Shown here piece by piece: positions 29,715 to 38,986 of a DNA stretch of 40,605 nt. The stretch comes from Candidatus Binatia bacterium (GTDB taxonomy: Bacteria; Patescibacteriota; Saccharimonadia; Saccharimonadales; UBA10212): the NCBI GenBank assembly GCA_035542755.1, contig DATKKU010000041.1:1-40605 (forward strand). The letters are read 5' to 3'. Numbering within the stretch: the stretch's first letter is position 1; each line of letters opens with the position of its first letter. Made by a program: the position numbers and the translations under genes. The notes beneath the pieces were generated by a model. The model was not told where the DNA came from. It saw nothing but the letters and a program-made list of their open reading frames with translations, and did no database searches.

Positions 29715-29788
29715 TGGGACGTGGCCAAGCGGTAAGGCACTGGGTTCTGGTCCCAGGATCGTAGGTTCGAATCCTACCGTCCCAGCCA
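29715..29788 (+). tRNA. tRNA-Gln(CTG), CCA encoded
   Basis: TGGGACGTGGCCAAGCGGTAAGGCACTGGGTTCTGGTCCCAGGATCGTAGGTTCGAATCCTACCGTCCCAGCCA. U1-A72 pair, anticodon loop TTCTGGT. Confidence 0.92.
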
Positions 29789-30426: not shown

Positions 30427-32031
30427 CTAAGTGGTTTTTTCGGCGATTAGCAGCATGTTGGTAACCGGAAAGTCCAAAGGCTTAAGACCGTCATCGCCAC
30501 GAACAAATAGCTGCGCGCCGTCTTTATATCTATTTTCTATAACCCAGTCGTTGGTGTAGGCGTTGGAACCATCCATAACGCTAAAGCCGACCTGCTTTAC
30601 GGCCTGGCACCACTGCTCATAGTTCCAATAACAAAAAGTCTCGTGCATTTCGCTGTACCAACTATCCGTGTAATCTTTTTTGCTCAAAAACTCACAGGCA
30701 TCAGCCAGCCGCAGCTCAATGTACTCGGAACCGTTGTCCTGAACTTGCTTGAACTCAAACTTTTGCTGCTCCTCGGCTCTAAAGTCTCTGGAAAAGCGGC
30801 GAAAGCGGCCCAAAGTAGAAAGCTCTTTAATATGCTCGGTATCAACTTTGGGAGAGACATCTATTTCTTCCCAGTTTTCGGTGCGGCCGTTAGAGTTATT
30901 TAGTTTGAGTAGCACTAGCTGGTCTTTATTGTCTGGAGCGACGACGTCGGAGTTTATAAAAACTCCGCCGCTGGCGGTTTGGGCGTATATTTTTTTAATA
31001 AATTGAAGTAAGGCGTCGCGGCCCAAGTATGACTCTATTTCGTGGGTTAGAGAGAAGGTGGTCGTGGTATCTATAGAATTATCGGGAAATATCATGCCGG
31101 TCATGATGTTGCGCTGATAAAAAAAGACGTTGTCGTTAGAAAACTCACCGTTTTTTCGGCGCTGTTCGCAAATATCATAGAGCTTACGTGAGGCCTCAAT
31201 GCCGTATAGGTCTGACTCTGCTAGCTTTGGGTCGCGGCTCATCAGCTGGATAACGCCGCCGGTGGCGCAACCTATGTCAACCACTCGGCCGCTTTTAATA
31301 AATGGTTTGATGAGCTCAAACTTGCGCTCGGCGCCAACTTCAAAATCCCGGCGATAAGTTTCGTAGTCGCGGGTTTCGGTGATGTCGCCCTCGTCGCCCA
31401 GCAGTGGGTCGTTAAAAACCTCTAAAATCAAGTCGCCCAGACGATATTTTTCCAGCATTTGACGCGATGAGTAATGAACATCACTTTGATAAAGCGGGTC
31501 GTTTCGCCAACTGGCGCCGGCGGCAACTATAGCCAGCACCAAATCCCAGGGACGTTTGTGCGAAGCCTCGGCGGTCTGTCGGTTAGTAAGCTCTGCCGGG
31601 GCGATGACGTAGCCCAACTTTTCGTACATATCAATCACCGAAGGCGTAGAGCATAGCACCAACGTATTACTAGGCGAAATATTAAATTGGCCTCGGCTTT
31701 GGACGGTTATTTCTTTGATGACAAAGTCGGCAAAGCGCTGAGTGTAGCCCAAGTCATTAATCGGATAAGAAAAACTAGTGGCCGGCAGTTCCTCACAAAA
31801 AGTTTCAATGGCCTGCTCGCGGCGGTTGCTGGGTATGGGGTTGCGGCGGGTGTTTTCGTGGTTAGCAGACGTTACTGCCCATATGATGTTGGGACTCGGG
31901 CGGAGCTTTATTGGTTGGCCGTTAATATCAAGCGACTGGCCGTCGCTGAGCAAGTTCTTTAAATATTCATATTGAAAGTTAGTCAGCAAATGGTGGCGTC
32001 CGGGTATTAAGATGTTTTCAAATGTTGACAT
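30427..32031 (-). CDS. fusion protein: nucleotidyltransferase-like N-domain (degenerate HxGH) plus class I SAM-dependent methyltransferase
   Basis: The N-terminus IPGRHHLLTNFQ...AVTSANHENTRRNPIPSNRRE resembles the NadM/NMNAT-type GRFQPFHxGH...SA....NPF..ER layout, but the HxGH positions read TNFQ. The middle has VVDIGCATGGV (SAM motif I). The 534 aa are otherwise unassigned. Confidence 0.6.
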   Translation of the reverse strand: MSTFENILIPGRHHLLTNFQYEYLKNLLSDGQSLDINGQPIKLRPSPNIIWAVTSANHENTRRNPIPSNRREQAIETFCEELPATSFSYPINDLGYTQRFADFVIKEITVQSRGQFNISPSNTLVLCSTPSVIDMYEKLGYVIAPAELTNRQTAEASHKRPWDLVLAIVAAGASWRNDPLYQSDVHYSSRQMLEKYRLGDLILEVFNDPLLGDEGDITETRDYETYRRDFEVGAERKFELIKPFIKSGRVVDIGCATGGVIQLMSRDPKLAESDLYGIEASRKLYDICEQRRKNGEFSNDNVFFYQRNIMTGMIFPDNSIDTTTTFSLTHEIESYLGRDALLQFIKKIYAQTASGGVFINSDVVAPDNKDQLVLLKLNNSNGRTENWEEIDVSPKVDTEHIKELSTLGRFRRFSRDFRAEEQQKFEFKQVQDNGSEYIELRLADACEFLSKKDYTDSWYSEMHETFCYWNYEQWCQAVKQVGFSVMDGSNAYTNDWVIENRYKDGAQLFVRGDDGLKPLDFPVTNMLLIAEKTT

Positions 32032-32123
32032 AATTAAAGGTTAGCACAAATTTAGGGGTTCAACTTTCGTCCTAAAAAAGCGGGACTCGTCAGCACGAGG
32101 AAAACTCGTGGAGTTGAGGGGGT

Positions 32124-32153
32124 GGCGGAGGTTCGCGTACGCGAACCTCCGCC
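32124..32153 (-). terminator. 30-nt perfect GC-rich palindrome, probable terminator of the island operon
   Basis: GGCGGAGGTTCGCG-TA-CGCGAACCTCCGCC lies 47 nt downstream of the vWA stop. A second hairpin CACGAG-GAAAA-CTCGTG and an A/T-run lie further downstream on the minus strand. Confidence 0.6.
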
Positions 32154-32199
32154 TGTCGGGAGCGATGGCTCAACCGACTAATGAGTGGGCGCGTGCGGG

Positions 32200-32982
32200 T
32201 TAGCCGCCAAAACCGCCAAGGGCGGTCTGGCTGAAGCTGCCAGCACTCTGGCTGGCGCGCACCGCGCTTTGACTGACGACCGCGAAGGCCTTGCGAATCT
32301 CGCTGGGCGAATTGCCCGGCGTGAGAATCCAGGTGTCCGGAATTCCCATGTCCGCGAAGATCTGGCGGAAGTCGGTGTGGCCGTCGTCGATACCGATGGC
32401 GGCCACGATGTGCTGTTCCGTCTTGAGCAGGCCCTGCACGATGGCCCTGACGTTGTCGGGCGTGTCGTAGGTGGAGTCCTCGCCATCGGTGACGATGACG
32501 GTGATGGCTCGCACTGCGACGCCGCCTGCCTCGAACTGGGCCACCTTTGCGGCCACACTGGTGAGTGTGACTGCTGCCTCCCGGTAAAGAGGCGTGCCGC
32601 CTGACGGGTTGTAGTTGCTGTTGTCCAGCTTGACGGCACCGGCCAGGGGCCGGTAGGCGTAGAAGACACCGCGGTTGAGCAGGTCGCAGCCGATCAGAAC
32701 ATCGGCCGACTGCTTGGACCCTGCCAGTGCCTCCACCACCTCGTTGCCGCCAATCCGCACTGCCTCAGGGTTGCCCGGAACGTAGGCGATGGAGCTGCTG
32801 TCGTCCAGCAGCATCCGCACCAGGACCGCCTCGCTGGAGCTGACGTCGTCCAGGCTGACGTCCCCCAGGCCCGCCATGATGGCGGGCCCCAGGGTATCGG
32901 CCGTCAACTCCATGGCCGCCGTGGCGCTGGCGTCCAGGCCGGCATCTCCCAGCAGGCTGCTGAGGTTTGCACTGTCACTCAT
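32200..32982 (-). CDS. vWA-domain protein, TerY-like (MIDAS intact)
   Basis: AAGGA RBS upstream. MIDAS motif LLDDSSS (DxSxS), followed by GGTPLY and VTDGEDS. Size and layout fit TerY-type vWA proteins. Confidence 0.85.
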   Translation of the reverse strand: MSDSANLSSLLGDAGLDASATAAMELTADTLGPAIMAGLGDVSLDDVSSSEAVLVRMLLDDSSSIAYVPGNPEAVRIGGNEVVEALAGSKQSADVLIGCDLLNRGVFYAYRPLAGAVKLDNSNYNPSGGTPLYREAAVTLTSVAAKVAQFEAGGVAVRAITVIVTDGEDSTYDTPDNVRAIVQGLLKTEQHIVAAIGIDDGHTDFRQIFADMGIPDTWILTPGNSPSEIRKAFAVVSQSAVRASQSAGSFSQTALGGFGG

Positions 32983-33021
32983 TTTTATTTTCCTTTCTTC
33001 CAGGTTTAGCCAGCGCTCTGG

Positions 33022-34071
33022 CTAGAGCCGGACGTCGGGCCAGCTGGGAAGCGGGTCGGTGGACTTGACGACGTGCATGCCAGCGTTGCGGAACCGGTCA
33101 AAGGCCGCGTCGGCCTCATCGGTGTAGTCCAGCACGCCGGGGATGACGACCGGAGAGGTGCAGTCCTCCAGGAGGTACACCTTGCCAGCCAGGTTCGGAT
33201 CCTTCGCCGTGATGTCGCTGAGCAGGTCGTCGATGGTCCAGGCAACGCAGTGGCTCTTGGCCTGACCGGCGATGGCCAGGACATCGAACTTCAGCAGCAT
33301 CTCGATGAAGACGGTGTTGCGCTGGGCGCTCGGCAGCTGCCGATTTCCCGCCGTGGTCAGGACCTCGGGGCCCAGAACCGAGTAGTTTTCGGTGAAGGCG
33401 TTGGTGCCCTTCACCTCAAAGCCGGTCTGTGCTCCGCGGGCGATGGCGTGGAAGAAGCAAGCCTCCTCCAGGCCGCTGACCAGAGCGTGACCCTTGCCGC
33501 CCAGCATGGCGTGGAAGGGCCAGATGGTCAGTGCATAGCGTCCGGCGGCGGCCAGCTGCTGCGTGTAGTGCTCAAGATGCTGCTGAGCAGCACTCAAGCT
33601 GACGTGCAGTGCGGAGGCCATGAACGGGCTAGCCGTCCACTTGCCGTCCAGGATGTCCTGGTGGCTGACGAGTGTGTACGGTGCCGGGTTGGCGCCGAAC
33701 TCGTCGACCAGGAAGGGCGGGTGAAACACCGCGTAGGCGCGGTGCGTATCCAGCGTGCAGTGGATGTCGCTGAGCAGACCCAGGTTGCGGTAGATGAACT
33801 CCGCAGTCCGGGCGCTGTCCTCTACAGCTCCGTTTCCGGAGCGGCCGCCCACGAACAGCTCGCCCTTGGGGTTGGCGAAGGTGTTCTGGGCGTCAATCAC
33901 CAGCAGGCCGACCTTGGTGCGGTCGGTTGCGCTGGCGCTCAGGCCGTGAGTCTGGCGCCAGTCGGTGGCAGCGGTTGCCAGACCGCCATAGTCCAGCCAG
34001 CGCTCGTCGTCTACCACCTTTGCCGGGTCGTAGTGCGCCGGCAACGGCAGCTGCGTAACAGTAGCAGTCAT
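33022..34071 (-). CDS. nicotinamidase / isochorismatase-family cysteine hydrolase (long PncA-like form)
   Basis: AAGGAG lies 7 nt before ATG 34071; the ORF-track start at 34188 lies inside the kinase gene. Motifs are LLVIDAQNTF (catalytic Asp), LDTHRAYAVFH (metal ligands), IWPFHAMLGGKG, VKGTNAFTENYS (catalytic Lys) and GQAKSHCVAWT (nucleophile Cys). Confidence 0.85.
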   Translation of the reverse strand: MTATVTQLPLPAHYDPAKVVDDERWLDYGGLATAATDWRQTHGLSASATDRTKVGLLVIDAQNTFANPKGELFVGGRSGNGAVEDSARTAEFIYRNLGLLSDIHCTLDTHRAYAVFHPPFLVDEFGANPAPYTLVSHQDILDGKWTASPFMASALHVSLSAAQQHLEHYTQQLAAAGRYALTIWPFHAMLGGKGHALVSGLEEACFFHAIARGAQTGFEVKGTNAFTENYSVLGPEVLTTAGNRQLPSAQRNTVFIEMLLKFDVLAIAGQAKSHCVAWTIDDLLSDITAKDPNLAGKVYLLEDCTSPVVIPGVLDYTDEADAAFDRFRNAGMHVVKSTDPLPSWPDVRL

Positions 34072-34099
34072 TGCTGCTCTCCTTTTTGTTTGAGTGGTT

Positions 34100-35968
34100 T
34101 TAGCTGAGTTTGAGCAGAGTAATTTCGCGGGCCGAAACCGCGTAGATGCCGTCACTGCCGGCCAAAAGCTGGCTGGCGGCGTCAACAAACGGTTCGGTAT
34201 CGGGGAACTCTTGCTCTACTTGCAGGGTTCCGTTAGCCGCCGTGATTCGGACGATTCCTTCGTCGGTGGCGGCATATAGAGACCTTCCGCTGGCAAAACG
34301 CCCGCGGATACCGCTTGCCAACCAGGAGTCATCGGTTTCTTCGGCCGAGGCCGAGGCAACCAATTCACCTTTTTGATTGACGACGTAGCAGTGGTTGACC
34401 AGCCGGCCTGCCTCTTGGATGCTGAGCATCAGCCACGCCAACTGGTTGGAAAATACACAGGTGGCGTCAATCAGCTGGCCCGGTAGGTTTGGAATTGGTA
34501 CGCGGTCGTTTAGCCCCGCGCCGCCAGTGTCAAAGACGAAGCTTCTCGTCATCTGACCGGCTTGGTAAAACCCCAGTCCGAAGCGGTCGCCCGCCCAGAA
34601 TAGAGTTTTGTCAGGTAGAACATCGCCGATGTAGCTGCTGCCCAACTTGCCGCTACGAACCAGCTGCCCGTTGGTAGTCCAGAAATAGGCCTCTGAGTTG
34701 GCGTCAAAGATTGGCAGCCGGCCGACGTTATCGGTTGTCAGGCTCTGCTTTGTCTGACCTGAGAAAACCAGCAGACGGTTTCGCTTGCCAAGCAGAGTGG
34801 TGTCGCCACTGATTCGGAAACGGAGCTCCGGATCAAGCTTGCCGCGAACCACTTCTTGGCCGTTCTCCCGGACAAAGCGTCCGTTCTCGTAGTGCAGATA
34901 GCGGAGTTTGCCGTTTTGAACGCAGGCGTGCAGAATTTGGCCCCGGGTGACGAACGTTCGAGTGGCCGTGACCTTACCTCGCCGTACGATGGTCTGAATC
35001 ACGGCTCCGGGTGCTGCACAGACCGGACATTTAGCCCTGGCATGGACGCTGCCGCAAACGCTGCAGACTGTCCAGCGCAGGTTATCGAGTAGTTGCAATG
35101 GAAAGACTTCGCGCAGGTCATTTTGGTAAACCCGCGTAAAGTAGTCCAGCAACTCGTCCGGCAACACGGTGAGTGGTAGAGCTGGTTTGGGGTAGAGGAC
35201 TTCAGGCGAGAAGACCGTGATTCTTGAAAGCACACGGTCGTCGTGCTGCAGCCGTTTGCCCGAGGTAGGTCTGTGGACTCCACCGTAGGGGCCAACAAAC
35301 AGCAGCGATTGGAACAACATGGTGCTAAAGGCGTACCAGTCAGAGTAACGGCTATGCGGTGTGCTGAGGACCAGGTGGTCCGGCGCGCAGGCCAGCGGGT
35401 CAACGAAGCGAGCCGTGAAGGTTCGGCAGAGGAACTTGCCAAACTGCATGCTGTCGGCGTCAACCAAGTACGAACGGTTGGTGCCGTCAAATAGCACGTT
35501 CAAATCGTTGAAGTCGCCGATGACTACTCCAGCCTGGTGCACCGCCTCCACCATTTCGCGTAGGTCGCGGAAGACTGCCAGAGTCTGGTTGCCGTCAATG
35601 CCGCCTTGTTCGCGCCACAGCCGGTCGCCCAGTCTGAGCAGTACTTCCTCGGTGTCCAGGTAGTTCATGGTGTAACCGGCAATGTCGGTGCCCGTTGAAC
35701 GGCGGTAAGCCAGTTCAAGCGGAGACACAACCCGTTCGGGCAAGACAGCGCCCGGGAAGGCCGGCAGCTTGGTTTGGATTTCGGCCAAGCGTTCTTTGGC
35801 CCCGGCCTGAGCCGAGGGGTTACCGGCGTAGTCCGGGTCGTTTGGTTGCTTGTACAGTTTCAACACCCGGCCGCCGTCAAGGCGGAATATGTCGGCCTCG
35901 CCGCCCTTGCCGATGATTGCCGTCGGCGGAAGCTGGCGACGCTGGCCATTTAGGTAAACGGTCGCCAC
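34100..35968 (-). CDS. atypical Ser/Thr protein-kinase-like protein with CxxC-x8-CxxC zinc ribbon and ~300-aa beta-rich C-terminal domain
   Basis: AGGAGG lies 4 nt before in-frame GTG 35968, right after the PP2C stop. The alternative ATG at 36013 overlaps PP2C by 35 nt. Motifs are Gly-loop IGKGGEADIF, VLKLYK (Lys), GVVIGDFNDLNVL (catalytic-loop-like), VDADSMQF (DFG-like) and CSVCGSVHARAKCPVC. Confidence 0.8.
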   Translation of the reverse strand: MATVYLNGQRRQLPPTAIIGKGGEADIFRLDGGRVLKLYKQPNDPDYAGNPSAQAGAKERLAEIQTKLPAFPGAVLPERVVSPLELAYRRSTGTDIAGYTMNYLDTEEVLLRLGDRLWREQGGIDGNQTLAVFRDLREMVEAVHQAGVVIGDFNDLNVLFDGTNRSYLVDADSMQFGKFLCRTFTARFVDPLACAPDHLVLSTPHSRYSDWYAFSTMLFQSLLFVGPYGGVHRPTSGKRLQHDDRVLSRITVFSPEVLYPKPALPLTVLPDELLDYFTRVYQNDLREVFPLQLLDNLRWTVCSVCGSVHARAKCPVCAAPGAVIQTIVRRGKVTATRTFVTRGQILHACVQNGKLRYLHYENGRFVRENGQEVVRGKLDPELRFRISGDTTLLGKRNRLLVFSGQTKQSLTTDNVGRLPIFDANSEAYFWTTNGQLVRSGKLGSSYIGDVLPDKTLFWAGDRFGLGFYQAGQMTRSFVFDTGGAGLNDRVPIPNLPGQLIDATCVFSNQLAWLMLSIQEAGRLVNHCYVVNQKGELVASASAEETDDSWLASGIRGRFASGRSLYAATDEGIVRITAANGTLQVEQEFPDTEPFVDAASQLLAGSDGIYAVSAREITLLKLS

Positions 35969-35978
35969 TTTTCCTCCT

Positions 35979-36803
35979 CTAGTTTTCTTCGGGTTTTGCC
36001 AGCCGTCCGACAATCAGTGTCGTGTCGTCGGGCAGCAGGCCGGGCTCGGGGTCTTTGCGTGGCCAGTCGCGGCTGATTAGCCGCAAGCGGCGGTTCAGCA
36101 GGTCTGGCTTGTTGGGGTCAAAGTAGTTCGGGTCGTCCCAAAACTGGCTGATGTTGCCGACCTGCTCACTCATGCCCGGCAGACTCATGTGCTCGGCAGC
36201 GATAAGGTCCATGACCCCATCACAGCCGATTGCAAAACTCTGCAAAGCTTCAAGCTCGCACGACGCCACAACTTCCAGGTTGGGAGCCTTCATATCCGGC
36301 TCCAAGCGGCCCGCCAGCAAGCCGTAAGCCGCATAAGGCGGCTGGTTGCCGGGGAATGGACCAAGCTGATAGATGTTGTTGTTGACGGCAAAGACTCCGT
36401 CACCCAAGGCAAAGAAGTCGGCCGTCTCGTCGGTCAGCGCAACACCAACGATTGTGAACAGAAAGTAGTCCTCAATCGTTTGGCGGTAGTTGCCGCCCAT
36501 CAGCCTGGCGGTAGAGTCAATGGTCTGAAGTACGTCTTCCAGTACTTCGTCCCAAAGGACTTCGCCGAAATCGCTGATGTGGTCGCTGACCGTGTTTGCT
36601 ACGAGGCGGGCACCAAGCTTCGCACCTACCTCGCTATCCTTGCTGCTGCCGCAACCATCGGTTACCACCGCAACTGTTGCCTGCTCGGTGCGAATGACGG
36701 CAAGGCCGTCCTGACCGTTTTTATGCAGGTTTATGTTGCGATGATTGCGCCCGGTTACGGAGCCGCTGGCAATCGCGAAGTCGTGGTGCGTCAAAGTGCT
36801 CAC
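35979..36803 (-). CDS. PP2C-family Ser/Thr phosphatase
   Basis: GRNHRNINLHKNGQDG...VAVVTDGCGS...FALGDG...AIGCDGVMD shows acidic metal-binding motifs in PP2C order. The start is GTG 36803 or, better spaced from GGAGGTG, TTG 36794. Confidence 0.78.
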   Translation of the reverse strand: MSTLTHHDFAIASGSVTGRNHRNINLHKNGQDGLAVIRTEQATVAVVTDGCGSSKDSEVGAKLGARLVANTVSDHISDFGEVLWDEVLEDVLQTIDSTARLMGGNYRQTIEDYFLFTIVGVALTDETADFFALGDGVFAVNNNIYQLGPFPGNQPPYAAYGLLAGRLEPDMKAPNLEVVASCELEALQSFAIGCDGVMDLIAAEHMSLPGMSEQVGNISQFWDDPNYFDPNKPDLLNRRLRLISRDWPRKDPEPGLLPDDTTLIVGRLAKPEEN

Positions 36804-36917: not shown

Positions 36918-38174
36918 TTAGACGCCAAAGACCTCCTTATATTTATTAATCTGAGACGGCGAGCCAGTATATTTGCCGGGGTCGTCGCTCAACTTTACGG
37001 TGCCGACTCCGTTGACGCGGGTGGCCTTCATGACAATGTTCAGGGCTTTTATACCGAGGTCATTGGTCAGACTGGTGCCCCAGCCAAACAGCACGTTTAT
37101 GCGGCTTTGAAAGTTTTCTTGCAGCGAAACAATGTCACCGATATCTAGTCCGTCGCTAAAGACAACTGTCTTTGTACGTGGGTCAATGGAATTTTGTGCG
37201 TAAAATTCAATTACCTTTTCGCCAAAATCGTAGGCGTCGCCAGAATCGTGGCGCACACCTTTCCATAACTCGGCCTGCTCTGGGCTAAAGTCGCTAAAGA
37301 AAAAATCACTGCCAAAAGTGTCGGTTAGAGCGATTGAATAGTCGTGGCCATAAAGACGGTACCAGTCGTCCAGAAATTTATTATGTGAGCCGGCAATATT
37401 TTGTCCGCGGGACTCGGCCAGCCCAGCGTAGACCATCGGCATTTCGTGGGCAAAGGTACCGATAGGCTTTAAGCCAAACTTGCGAGCCAAGCCAACATTT
37501 GAGGTGCCGACCAAATTGTCCGGGCACTCGGCCGCCAATCGTTCAATGACGTGGCTTTGCCAGCGGCTGCTAAAGTGACGGCGAGTACCAAAGTCGGCAA
37601 ACTTAATCTGCGGGTGGCTCTTTAGGATGTCAATCTTTTCGCTCAGTCGCCTATCGCCCTCCTCGTAGACTTCAAAGGGGTCTAGGTTGTGAGCCATCAA
37701 ATAGTTTTCAAAGTATATTTCATTTACCTCGGCTAGAACTGCCGTTTCCCAAAAAGTTACAGCCGGCCATTCGCCAGTTGTTTCAACGGCTAAATCGCCC
37801 TTTTGATTCAAGCCGACTTCTGCCTCCGGTAATTCCATATCTTCCAGATATTGCAAAAACTGCTCATTAAAAACCGCTTGGCCGTCGCTAAGACTAAGAC
37901 TACCAAGATATCTAAGTTCGGTTTCATTCCAGCCAAAGCGTCTGAGTGCCTCAAGCCTAGCGGCTAGCTCGGGCGGGGCAACAAACTCGCTAAGCTGCTC
38001 CGGGCCGCGGTTATGTAATGAAAAAGTAACTACGGCGCCTGGCTCTTTCGCATAAGCCAGTTGAGCCATAGTGGGCTTATAATAGTCCAATAACTCAGTT
38101 AGGTCGGGCAGGGCACCTTTGGCCGTCTGAGCCTCTATTGGTAGCTTTAACTCAGGTGATGTTATAGTGCTCAT
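36918..38174 (-). CDS. pncB: nicotinate phosphoribosyltransferase
   Basis: AGGAGG RBS (38181-38186). 418 aa with LLDYYKPTMAQ, FADFGTRRHFS and HEMPMV motifs typical of PncB. Confidence 0.9.
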   Translation of the reverse strand: MSTITSPELKLPIEAQTAKGALPDLTELLDYYKPTMAQLAYAKEPGAVVTFSLHNRGPEQLSEFVAPPELAARLEALRRFGWNETELRYLGSLSLSDGQAVFNEQFLQYLEDMELPEAEVGLNQKGDLAVETTGEWPAVTFWETAVLAEVNEIYFENYLMAHNLDPFEVYEEGDRRLSEKIDILKSHPQIKFADFGTRRHFSSRWQSHVIERLAAECPDNLVGTSNVGLARKFGLKPIGTFAHEMPMVYAGLAESRGQNIAGSHNKFLDDWYRLYGHDYSIALTDTFGSDFFFSDFSPEQAELWKGVRHDSGDAYDFGEKVIEFYAQNSIDPRTKTVVFSDGLDIGDIVSLQENFQSRINVLFGWGTSLTNDLGIKALNIVMKATRVNGVGTVKLSDDPGKYTGSPSQINKYKEVFGV

Positions 38175-38188
38175 GACCTACCTCCTAG

Positions 38189-38209
38189 TAATTGTATTTA
38201 ATACACTAA
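38189..38209. promoter_or_regulatory. candidate NrtR operator 1 (21-bp imperfect palindrome with GT-N7-AC core)
   Basis: TAATTGTAT-TTA-ATACACTAA, with core GT(38194-95)-ATTTAAT-AC(38203-04). It lies between the predicted pncB promoter and the RBS. Confidence 0.5.
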
Positions 38210-38222
38210 CTATCATGTCTAA

Positions 38223-38251
38223 AGAATATACAAGACTTAGTGTATTGTCAA
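38223..38251 (-). promoter_or_regulatory. pncB promoter
   Basis: The minus strand reads TTGACA (38251-38246), followed 15-17 nt later by TATATT/TATTCT. The -35 lies inside operator 2. Confidence 0.5.
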
Positions 38252-38256
38252 CACTA
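38238..38256. promoter_or_regulatory. candidate NrtR operator 2 (perfect 6-bp arms, GT-N7-AC core)
   Basis: TAGTGT-ATTGTCA-ACACTA. Its half-site TTAGTGTAT is the exact inverse of ATACACTAA in operator 1. Confidence 0.55.
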
Positions 38257-38276: not shown

Positions 38277-38948
38277 CTAATCAAAGTTTCGGGGCAGGCT
38301 TTGGAGTGATTGGTGTTTGAAGCAGTAGAGTTTAGCCGGTCTGTGAGCGCCTTCACGCAGAAATTCTCCAGTGGGGACTATTAAGTCTAGCTCGGTAAAG
38401 CGCTTGCGGAAGTTACGTTTATCAAGCTCGTGTCCTAAGACTGCTTCGTAGGCCGATTGCAGCTGAGGAAACGTAAACTGACTAGGCAGCAGAGCGAACA
38501 CGGCGTTAGTATAGGCCAATTTGGAACGCAGACGCTCATGAGCGTATTTAATAATATCTGGATGGTCATAAGCCAGTTTTGGCAGGTTGCTAACAGGGAA
38601 GAACTGGGGGTTTTCGGTAGTTTTGCCACCAAGCGGGCTAAGGCCATAGCAAAGGCCCATATAGCTCACCGATACGGCGTGACCGCGGGGGTCGCGGCCA
38701 ACTGAATCAAAGGTATAAAGCTGTTCAATTAGACCTAGGCGTTTGGTATCTATACCAGTCTTTACACGCAGCACTCTGGTCAGAGCCTGCATGGTTGTCT
38801 CGCCTTCTGGGTTATAGCCGCCGGGCAGGGCCCACTGGCCCTTGAAGGGGATGTTTTGGCGTTGTAGCAGCAGGACGCAGAGCTGGCCGTCTATTAGCTG
38901 AAAAATGATGCCGTCAATTGTTAGAATAGGAGGTCTATATTCGCTCAT
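38277..38948 (-). CDS. nrtR: NrtR-type regulator (degenerate Nudix domain plus C-terminal winged helix)
   Basis: The Nudix fold has a degenerate box (GGYNPEGETTMQALTRVLRVKTG lacks the REx2EE glutamates). The C-terminus FTFPQLQSAYEAVLGHELDKRNFRKRF is typical of NrtR wHTH. It lies adjacent to pncB. Confidence 0.82.
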   Translation of the reverse strand: MSEYRPPILTIDGIIFQLIDGQLCVLLLQRQNIPFKGQWALPGGYNPEGETTMQALTRVLRVKTGIDTKRLGLIEQLYTFDSVGRDPRGHAVSVSYMGLCYGLSPLGGKTTENPQFFPVSNLPKLAYDHPDIIKYAHERLRSKLAYTNAVFALLPSQFTFPQLQSAYEAVLGHELDKRNFRKRFTELDLIVPTGEFLREGAHRPAKLYCFKHQSLQSLPRNFD

Positions 38949-38965
38949 ATGCGCAATTTACCATA

Positions 38966-38986
38966 AAAGTGTTAAATATACAATAA
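38966..38986. promoter_or_regulatory. candidate NrtR operator 3 upstream of nrtR (autoregulation?)
   Basis: AAAGTGT-TAAATAT-ACAATAA, with a GT-N7-AC core at 38971-38981, 18 nt upstream of the nrtR start codon. Confidence 0.4.

Follow-up and report, generated by a model that had tools for sequence, protein, structure and literature searches.

The window described here is the whole 40,605-nt stretch that was analysed (contig DATKKU010000041.1, positions 1-40,605), and its element of interest is a cassette of four minus-strand genes at 32200-36803. In the order of transcription, these genes encode a PP2C-type phosphatase, a Ser/Thr-kinase-like protein, a predicted long-form nicotinamidase and a protein with a vWA fold; the phosphatase, kinase and vWA genes are referred to below as the trio. 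Two genes of nicotinamide adenine dinucleotide (NAD) metabolism and its regulation, pncB and nrtR, lie upstream. An initial annotation, made from the sequence alone, had proposed that the four genes form one operon of the TerY-P type in which a nicotinamidase is embedded. The features that bear on this proposal are listed below from the upstream end.

38970-38982, 22 nt upstream of the nrtR start codon: NrtR-type operator candidate TGTTAAATATACA, found by pattern search with the core GT-N7-AC.
38277-38948, minus strand: nrtR, a repressor with a Nudix-like sensor and a winged helix (Pfam NrtR_WHD 1.5e-25, NUDIX 1.2e-11; NCBIfam ADP-ribose (ADPR)-responsive repressor 7.8e-42).
38193-38253, upstream of pncB: two NrtR-type operator candidates, 38241-38253 and 38193-38205.
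36918-38174, minus strand: pncB, nicotinate phosphoribosyltransferase (Pfam NAPRTase 3.9e-55; NCBIfam NF003704 388.8 bits, cut-off 379).
35979-36803, minus strand: PP2C-type phosphatase (Pfam PP2C_2 5.4e-14), with the probable start at TTG 36794 (271 aa).
34100-35968, minus strand: Ser/Thr-kinase-like protein of 622 aa, with a kinase domain at about 1-290, a Zn ribbon at 302-317 and a C-terminal domain at about 326-622.
33022-34071, minus strand: long-form nicotinamidase (PncA type) of 349 aa, assigned from predicted fold and motifs.
32200-32982, minus strand: vWA-fold protein with a metal-ion-dependent adhesion site (MIDAS), an N-terminal helical extension and a Ser-rich C-terminal tail.
32124-32153, minus strand: perfect 13-bp GC-rich hairpin, 47 nt past the vWA stop codon, found by folding of 32100-32200.
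30427-32031, minus strand: 534-aa protein with an N-terminal domain without assignment and an S-adenosylmethionine (SAM) methyltransferase domain (Pfam methyltransferase domains).

The four open reading frames (ORFs) and their junctions are as the initial annotation had them, apart from the PP2C start. The TAG stop codon of the PP2C gene is followed by AGGAGG, 4 nt and the GTG start of the kinase gene at 35968; AAGGAG lies between the TAA stop codon of the kinase gene and the start of the nicotinamidase gene (ATG at 34071); and the vWA gene, with its ATG at 32982, begins after a spacer of 39 nt. In the public gene call, PP2C begins at TTG 36794 instead of GTG 36803, and TTG 36794 is likely the real start because its distance from GGAGG is better than that of the GTG. 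Downstream of the vWA gene, the region 32100-32200 folds with -44 kcal/mol (z = -6.2; none of 200 shuffled sequences is as stable), and the hairpin at 32124-32153, which is followed by no U tract, is the probable operon end. The adjacent PncB partner claimed initially is also present, with pncB adjoining the cassette and nrtR beyond it.

The initial claim that catalytic motifs are intact in all four proteins holds for the window and extends to the family, as the motifs are complete and are invariant among 79-95 orthologues per protein (88 for PP2C and 85 for the nicotinamidase). In PP2C, these motifs are D32, DG49-50, GDG134-136, DG195-196 and DD259-260, the metal-binding acidic residues being invariant, and the match to Pfam PP2C_2 scores 52.7 bits (cut-off 24). 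The kinase has invariant GxGGEA (20-25), K37, D152/N157, D170xD172 and SDWY (209-212) motifs, as well as a Zn ribbon of the form CxxC-x8-CxxC with invariant C302, C305, C314 and C317. The Pfam Pkinase match is weak for the window protein, and 19 of 24 family members match this model (best, 6.8e-8). Between the catalytic loop and the end of alphaF, a stretch that contains SDWY, the family profile can be aligned to S6K and PAK; the kinase domain weakly resembles APH, Kdo kinase and LanL/LanKC, too. At E<=1e-30, the kinase family falls into 822 clusters at 50% identity, in which the architecture of about 620 aa does not change. The C-terminal region of about 300 aa is conserved across the family and has no Pfam match and no internal repeats in hhalign; an earlier guess that it is a beta-propeller was rejected on these two results.

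The nicotinamidase and the vWA protein were identified through structure prediction and Foldseek, as sequence-only searches failed for both, and the folds assigned in this way are those claimed initially. The nicotinamidase model (AlphaFold2; mean predicted local distance difference test score, pLDDT, 91.6) finds nicotinamidases in 22 of its top 25 Foldseek matches in the PDB, led by the Acinetobacter baumannii enzyme (2wta, 1.3e-10), yeast Pnc1 and Streptococcus pneumoniae PncA. Target-normalised TM-scores to the PDB nicotinamidases are 0.67-0.80, except for the 327-residue Drosophila enzyme (0.51). The catalytic residues D60/K221/C275 and the metal-site residues D108/H110/H187, of which H187 lies in a WPxH motif, are invariant. 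The protein owes its extra length to about 50 aa added at the N-terminus and to a helical insertion of some 65 aa (residues 118-183). No NCBIfam model and no PDB chain was matched significantly in sequence-only searches, and because the Pfam Isochorismatase score also lies below its threshold, the identification rests on fold and motifs. According to the structural model, the product of 33022-34071 is a genuine nicotinamidase, which would convert nicotinamide to nicotinate. In some CPR-like (candidate phyla radiation) and viral loci, the nicotinamidase has an extra N-terminal domain of about 230-250 aa (L013:11908-13650 and L081:9882-11660), for which Pfam searches are uninformative; the same 750-bp spacing as in these fused loci is seen in L022, L035, L043 and L055.

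The AlphaFold2 model of the vWA protein (pLDDT 86.5) has vWA and integrin I domains as its top Foldseek matches, and the MIDAS residues D60xS62xS64, T130 and D166 are invariant among orthologues. No match to this protein was found in Pfam, NCBIfam, PADLOC or PDB phmmer and profile searches, for Pfam and PADLOC even with the limit relaxed to E<=10. Residues 236-260 form a near-invariant Ser-rich tail (SQSAVRASQ...FSQTALGGFG), which is modelled at low confidence and looks like a docking or phospho-acceptor peptide.

A kinase-profile scan of one genome per species detected relatives in at least 438 genomes. Synteny was counted in the best 80 kinase loci from these 438 genomes, with neighbours called by tblastn; these loci belong to Saccharibacteria, many other CPR bacteria, Cyanobacteria, Myxococcota, Acidobacteriota, Planctomycetota and others. 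A PP2C gene lies directly upstream of the kinase gene in all 74 evaluable loci, and the nicotinamidase gene followed by the vWA gene lies downstream in 61 of 66. The isochorismatase-family gene thus recurs between the kinase and vWA genes, and the idea that such triads never co-occur with a cysteine-hydrolase gene elsewhere, which would have made the arrangement in the window a chance adjacency, is decisively contradicted. This constancy supports the conclusion that the four genes are one conserved functional unit. In two loci, a second, distant nicotinamidase paralogue (35-36% identity) is located just downstream of the vWA gene (L048:14149-15105 and L075:14048-14995), and canonical Pfam Isochorismatase proteins are encoded near the cassette in three CPR loci.

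The base composition of the cassette is distinct in the window, where its G+C content (GC) is 60.8% versus 48.9% in the flanks, with steps at the cassette borders. GC at third codon positions is 0.85 in the nicotinamidase gene versus 0.53 in pncB, and the neighbouring genes, nrtR and pncB included, are much lower than the four cassette genes in both measures. Three independent assemblies of the contig show the same cassette junctions, and an assembly chimera was therefore ruled out as the source of the GC step. A GC excess of +5 to +10 points recurs across most CPR loci and is absent from cyanobacteria and myxobacteria; the simplest idea is that the offset in CPR bacteria arose through repeated lateral transfer.

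The second line of evidence is the association of the cassette with NrtR. NrtR binds an operator with the core GT-N7-AC within a 21-bp palindrome, and ADP-ribose frees NrtR from DNA (PMC2330246). Of 65 complete cassettes, 39 have an NrtR gene at a distance of no more than 1.5 kb, and outside CPR this gene is the only recurrent neighbour, the remainder being variable housekeeping genes. In the regions upstream of PP2C in 74 loci, 117 TGT-N7-ACA sites are present, compared with 6.5 +/- 2.6 expected from Markov simulation of the same regions; the density is 4.3 per kb, versus 0.19 per kb in intergenic DNA of equal GC (about 20-fold). At least one such box, and usually two, is located directly upstream of PP2C in 64 of the 74 loci. 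Across phyla, then, the cassette is linked to NrtR genes and predicted NrtR-type operators. Within CPR, the cassette lies in an NAD island, where the neighbours at up to 3.5 kb also include PncB, NadD-like proteins or cytidylyltransferases, NadE, NAD kinase, ADP-ribosylglycohydrolase, histidine phosphatase and methyltransferase. PncB is adjacent in the window and in 20 of the 65 complete-cassette loci. The link to NAD metabolism that had been proposed initially is therefore borne out by the predicted nicotinamidase fold, by PncB and other NAD-related neighbours, and by the NrtR genes and operators.

In the window itself, three AT-rich TGT-N7-ACA boxes are located upstream of nrtR and pncB, and the box at 38241-38253 overlaps the -35 element TTGACA of a promoter-like site at 38251-38223. 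The Nudix box of nrtR is degenerate (RVLRVK instead of REUxEE). Because no box, promoter or terminator was found in the 114-bp spacer between pncB and PP2C, the cassette is probably read through from the pncB promoter, and would thereby share the candidate NrtR control of that promoter.

The relationship between the trio and the nicotinamidase is asymmetric. In a nicotinamidase-centred scan of metagenome contigs, at least 596 relatives were found and the 80 closest were examined (53-67% identity, full length). A kinase gene is present at 10 of 65, and a vWA gene at 9 of 63, evaluable loci of these close long nicotinamidases; the stand-alone copies adjoin an NAPRTase-like gene (12 loci) or NrtR (7 loci). 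As the long nicotinamidase usually stands alone beside such genes, it appears to be an ordinary, autonomous salvage enzyme. The kinase/PP2C/vWA trio, in contrast, almost never occurs without the nicotinamidase. This one-way dependence, in which the trio needs the nicotinamidase and not vice versa, suggests by comparative-genomic logic that the trio acts as an accessory layer on or through the nicotinamidase.

The same four genes are present on 15 IMG/VR contigs of 42-545 kb. The 12 viral loci that were scanned carry NadE (four ORFs), PncB and a cytidylyltransferase in their flanks, together with genes for HNH endonucleases, DNA polymerase, a Dda-like helicase, RNA ligase and tRNA nucleotidyltransferase, as well as numerous ORFans; such flanks are those of a huge phage. 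No NrtR gene was found within 8 kb of the viral cassettes, and upstream boxes occur only at the background rate (1/13). Phage nicotinamidases that have diverged further (30-36% identity) remain accompanied by divergent vWA and kinase genes, at times with PP2C as well, in rearranged orders, the nicotinamidase-vWA pair being the most persistent; the 485-kb phage assembly LR745208.1 carries one such divergent version. Small ORFs are inserted in phage loci, for which Pfam searches are uninformative. On two viral contigs (L083 and L094), the order is vWA-PP2C-kinase-nicotinamidase, which corresponds to a TerY-P-like order plus the amidase, and the module thus tolerates permutation. Searches of GenBank phages and PLSDB plasmids returned only distant relatives, and BFVD only giant-virus nicotinamidases. 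Recent viral-cellular transfer was ruled out, as the viral kinases are about equidistant from all cellular groups (42-55% identity).

Other features of the window touch the cassette less directly. The 534-aa protein encoded at 30427-32031, homologues of which are encoded beside the cassette in several CPR loci (L005, L010, L017, L029, L040 and L130), may belong to the same NAD island. Its N-terminal half has only a faint NMNAT-like NCBIfam match (E 0.04), and a PDB search returned no match to the protein. ARAGORN detects nine tRNA genes over 2532-29788 of the window (Leu x2, Cys, Val, Phe, Gly, Ala x2 and Gln), of which tRNA-Gln (29715-29788) is about 2.4 kb downstream of the cassette. The contig is labelled 'Candidatus Binatia bacterium' at NCBI (locus tag VMT23_03410), whereas the close homologues of its genes are all from Saccharibacteria/Patescibacteria, and the contig is therefore probably mis-binned.

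The TerY-phosphorylation triad was reportedly defined by Anantharaman, Iyer and Aravind in 2012, and TerY-P-like modules are said to have been reported as anti-phage by Gao et al. in 2020. As summarised in PMC11090510, TerY-P consists of a vWA protein, PP2C and a kinase that continues at its C-terminus into a Zn ribbon or, in the Gao et al. modules, an OB fold, and such triads are proposed to be metal-sensing phospho-switches with varied partners. Measured against that summary, the cassette is alike in having a co-operonic MIDAS vWA protein, PP2C (PP2C_2) and a Ser/Thr kinase that bears a Zn ribbon, which presumably form a reversible phospho-switch. It differs in that a near-obligatory nicotinamidase separates the kinase and vWA genes so that the trio is not contiguous, in its gene order (PP2C-kinase-[nicotinamidase]-vWA), in the extra conserved C-terminal domain of the kinase (about 300 aa), and in its location under NrtR among NAD genes rather than beside restriction or tellurite modules.

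The PADLOC search suggested initially was run, and at E<=10 no TerY-P model matches the cassette; a Pseudomonas plasmid triad of vWA-like, PP2C and kinase genes is likewise unmatched, so this is not a clean negative. This plasmid triad (L128; Pseudomonas syringae pv. maculicola plasmid pPma4326F, 71513-74875) is a plain one made up of a 220-aa vWA-like protein, PP2C and a Zn-ribbon kinase of 647 aa; it is mostly annotated as hypothetical and has no TerY-P match in PADLOC-DB 2.0. The cassette kinase is 26% identical to the kinase of this megaplasmid triad over the kinase and Zn-ribbon regions, and hhalign of the cassette vWA protein against the first gene product of the triad gives E 3.6e-4 but only 37% probability. 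In summary, the TerY-P-type composition of vWA, PP2C and kinase-Zn ribbon proposed initially stands, and membership in TerY-P is not established because no model matches (with no positive control), the genes are non-contiguous, the order differs and the kinase has an extra domain.

The regulatory side of the cassette also has known counterparts. NrtR regulons contain pncA, pncB, nadD, nadE, nadV, prs, niaP and nrtX-nrtY (Rodionov et al., 2008, PMC2330246). The cassette locus resembles them in having nrtR with a degenerate Nudix box, candidate GT-N7-AC operators at the promoter and, in the window, pncB and a nicotinamidase that probably share one transcription unit. Unlike the cassette locus, the published regulons contain no kinase, PP2C or vWA gene (PMC2330246), and the cassette nicotinamidase, at about 350 aa, is a long form and scores under the Pfam threshold. 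Characterised nicotinamidases (2wta, Pnc1 3v8e, S. pneumoniae 3o91 and Mycobacterium tuberculosis PncA 3pl1) share with it the isochorismatase-like fold, the Asp-Lys-Cys triad, the Asp/His/His metal site and WPxH, but are only 14-18% identical to it and lack both its N-terminal extension (about 50 aa) and its helical insertion (about 65 aa).

Among phage NAD reconstitution pathways (NARPs), NARP1 consists of Adps and Namat, NARP2 of NadV and NMNAT, and NARP3 of PnuC and NadR, and NARP1 makes ADPR-PP, an unexpected phosphorylated intermediate in phage NAD pathways (bioRxiv 2024.02.11.579819; PMC13464706; PMC11662467). The viral cassettes resemble these and other jumbo-phage NAD clusters in lying beside NadE, PncB and cytidylyltransferase genes, which together would give a nicotinamide-to-NAD route in phages. 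NARP1-3, however, include neither a nicotinamidase nor the kinase/PP2C/vWA trio, the window is of cellular and not of phage origin, and the gene pairs that define NARP1-3 were found neither in the window nor in the viral loci. Searches of the open-access PMC and bioRxiv literature, including papers on NARP1-3 and jumbo-phage NAD and a survey of viral NAD-ADPr (ADP-ribose) systems, found no description of the four-gene cassette, in agreement with the initial view that a nicotinamidase between kinase and vWA genes lies outside the described architecture.

Overall, the cassette combines two known kinds of system, a TerY-P-like switch and an NrtR-regulated salvage enzyme. With a probability of roughly 55%, it is an NAD-salvage operon under ADP-ribose/NrtR control in which the nicotinamidase is packaged with a dedicated reversible phosphorylation switch resembling TerY-P. 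In such an operon, ADP-ribose would build up when NAD is cleaved, and NrtR would leave the promoter (in the window, the pncB promoter, with read-through into the cassette). The nicotinamidase would convert nicotinamide to nicotinate, which would be passed to PncB next door. Transcriptional control through ADP-ribose and NrtR, the amidase reaction and the delivery of nicotinate to PncB are the better supported steps of this scheme. The kinase and PP2C would set the phosphorylation state of the vWA protein, whose Ser-rich tail is an obvious candidate, or of the nicotinamidase, and the MIDAS site might bind a phosphorylated or acidic ligand, thereby holding or freeing the nicotinamidase. Gating of this enzyme would control the flux of nicotinamide into the ATP-costly Preiss-Handler route, and the C-terminal domain of the kinase could be sensor-like. 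Huge phages, which carry the module with PncB and NadE and without NrtR, would presumably use it to rebuild NAD during infection.

Several observations weigh against this scheme. The putative phospho-gating of the nicotinamidase by the trio, including the kinase substrate and the vWA binding partner, is proposed by analogy only. In most genomes the nicotinamidase plainly functions with no trio beside it, which leaves the benefit of gating unexplained, and its match to Pfam Isochorismatase (PF00857) is below the gathering score (E 0.032; 14.8 bits, cut-off 27). The five exceptions to the conserved order are Spirulina-type cyanobacteria (L034, L054, L056, L061 and L080), which keep the PP2C-kinase pair with no nicotinamidase or vWA gene nearby, and which also keep the upstream TGT-N7-ACA boxes wherever upstream DNA is present (all but L061). 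Finally, patchy spread across phyla, GC excess in CPR bacteria and phage copies are also typical of conflict systems. In one of the Spirulina-type loci (L056), the gene after the kinase (11972-13573) looks like an Hsp70/actin-fold ATPase.

The features shared with conflict systems could be taken further, to a TerY-P-like anti-phage defence with the nicotinamidase as its effector, as the initial annotation had suggested. ADP-ribose from NADase immunity would then induce the operon and the switch would activate the nicotinamidase; destruction of nicotinamide would starve phage NAD reconstitution or relieve the inhibition of host NADases by nicotinamide. The composition of vWA, PP2C and kinase-Zn ribbon fits the published TerY-P description, and the similarity of the kinase to the Pseudomonas megaplasmid triad kinase (26% identity in the kinase and Zn-ribbon region), a regulator that senses ADP-ribose, of a sort also known from predicted conflict systems, the patchy distribution and the anomalous GC in CPR genomes point the same way. 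Yet this effector role finds no direct support and is unlikely. No defence model matches, the flanks contain housekeeping or NAD-biosynthesis genes rather than defence islands, and adjacent PncB, here and in 20 of 65 complete cassettes, implies that nicotinate is recycled and not discarded. Huge-phage contigs carry the same cassette beside NadE and PncB, and its strong sequence conservation and constant architecture are unlike those of fast-evolving defence genes. The alternative offered in the initial annotation, that a signalling triad regulates NAD salvage, fits better, given the cross-phylum linkage to NrtR and its operators and the usual occurrence of the nicotinamidase without the triad. 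It is quite unlikely that the trio targets something else, for example as a metal-sensing or stress switch, with the nicotinamidase merely a co-regulated output or metabolic helper: the nicotinamidase is kept between kinase and vWA in 61 of 66 loci, even the divergent, reshuffled phage versions retain it with vWA and kinase, and besides NrtR no gene recurs with the trio outside CPR. This idea would nevertheless accommodate the proposal that TerY-P triads are metal-sensing phospho-switches with varied partners (PMC11090510), the Spirulina-type PP2C-kinase pairs without nicotinamidase or vWA, one of them with the Hsp70-like gene in that place, and the kinase C-terminal domain without assigned identity.

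The weak resemblance of the kinase to the small-molecule or peptide kinases APH, Kdo kinase and LanL/LanKC, the large insertions of the nicotinamidase, which are not in characterised PncA enzymes, and the precedent of ADPR-PP synthesis by NARP1 would also suit a new small-molecule pathway, in which a pyridine or ADP-ribose-derived metabolite is the substrate of the kinase and PP2C, and the amidase uses not free nicotinamide but, for example, nicotinamide mononucleotide, nicotinamide riboside or NAD. Such a pathway is very improbable, because the kinase retains the Hanks protein-substrate lobe (SDWY, within the alignment to S6K that extends through alphaF), the metal site and triad specific to nicotinamidases do not vary among orthologues, stand-alone homologues occur in ordinary PncA-PncB and NrtR contexts, and the ligands of vWA MIDAS domains are proteins or peptides. 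Chance adjacency or an assembly artefact, be it a housekeeping pncA inside an unrelated triad or a chimera of high- and low-GC DNA, could be suspected from the GC step from about 49% to 61% at the cassette borders, but can practically be dismissed in view of the same order in 61 of 66 loci from many phyla and the identical junctions in three independent assemblies. The operon for switch-controlled NAD salvage is thus preferred over these readings.

NAD cleavage and resynthesis are now viewed as a central battleground between bacteria and phages, and a role of the cassette in phage-host NAD conflict is possible. More tentatively, it might be an NAD-conflict device used by both sides, that is, a nicotinamidase machine induced by ADP-ribose and gated by phosphorylation. 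In bacteria, the device would determine whether nicotinamide released by NADase immunity or toxins is used to rebuild NAD or is withheld from phage NARPs. In huge phages, the cassette together with PncB, NadD and NadE would constitute a fourth NAD reconstitution pathway, of the Preiss-Handler type. The kinase C-terminal domain would serve as the sensor, and the vWA MIDAS and Ser-rich tail as a latch on the nicotinamidase.

Nicotinamidase commits nicotinamide to the Preiss-Handler route and, to our knowledge, is usually regarded as an unregulated housekeeping enzyme. The spread of the cassette over at least 438 species-level genomes, 822 kinase clusters at 50% identity and huge phages suggests that Ser/Thr phospho-control and ADP-ribose-responsive transcription of the nicotinamidase step are widespread. 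The module would also provide TerY-P-like triads with a concrete, assayable enzymatic partner. The hypothesis is directly testable, since the cassette is present in the culturable Myxococcus, Pyxidicoccus, Minicystis, Nodosilinea PCC 7104 and Calothrix. In CPR bacteria, which are genome-reduced and dependent on salvage, the cassette may be a key control point of cofactor supply.

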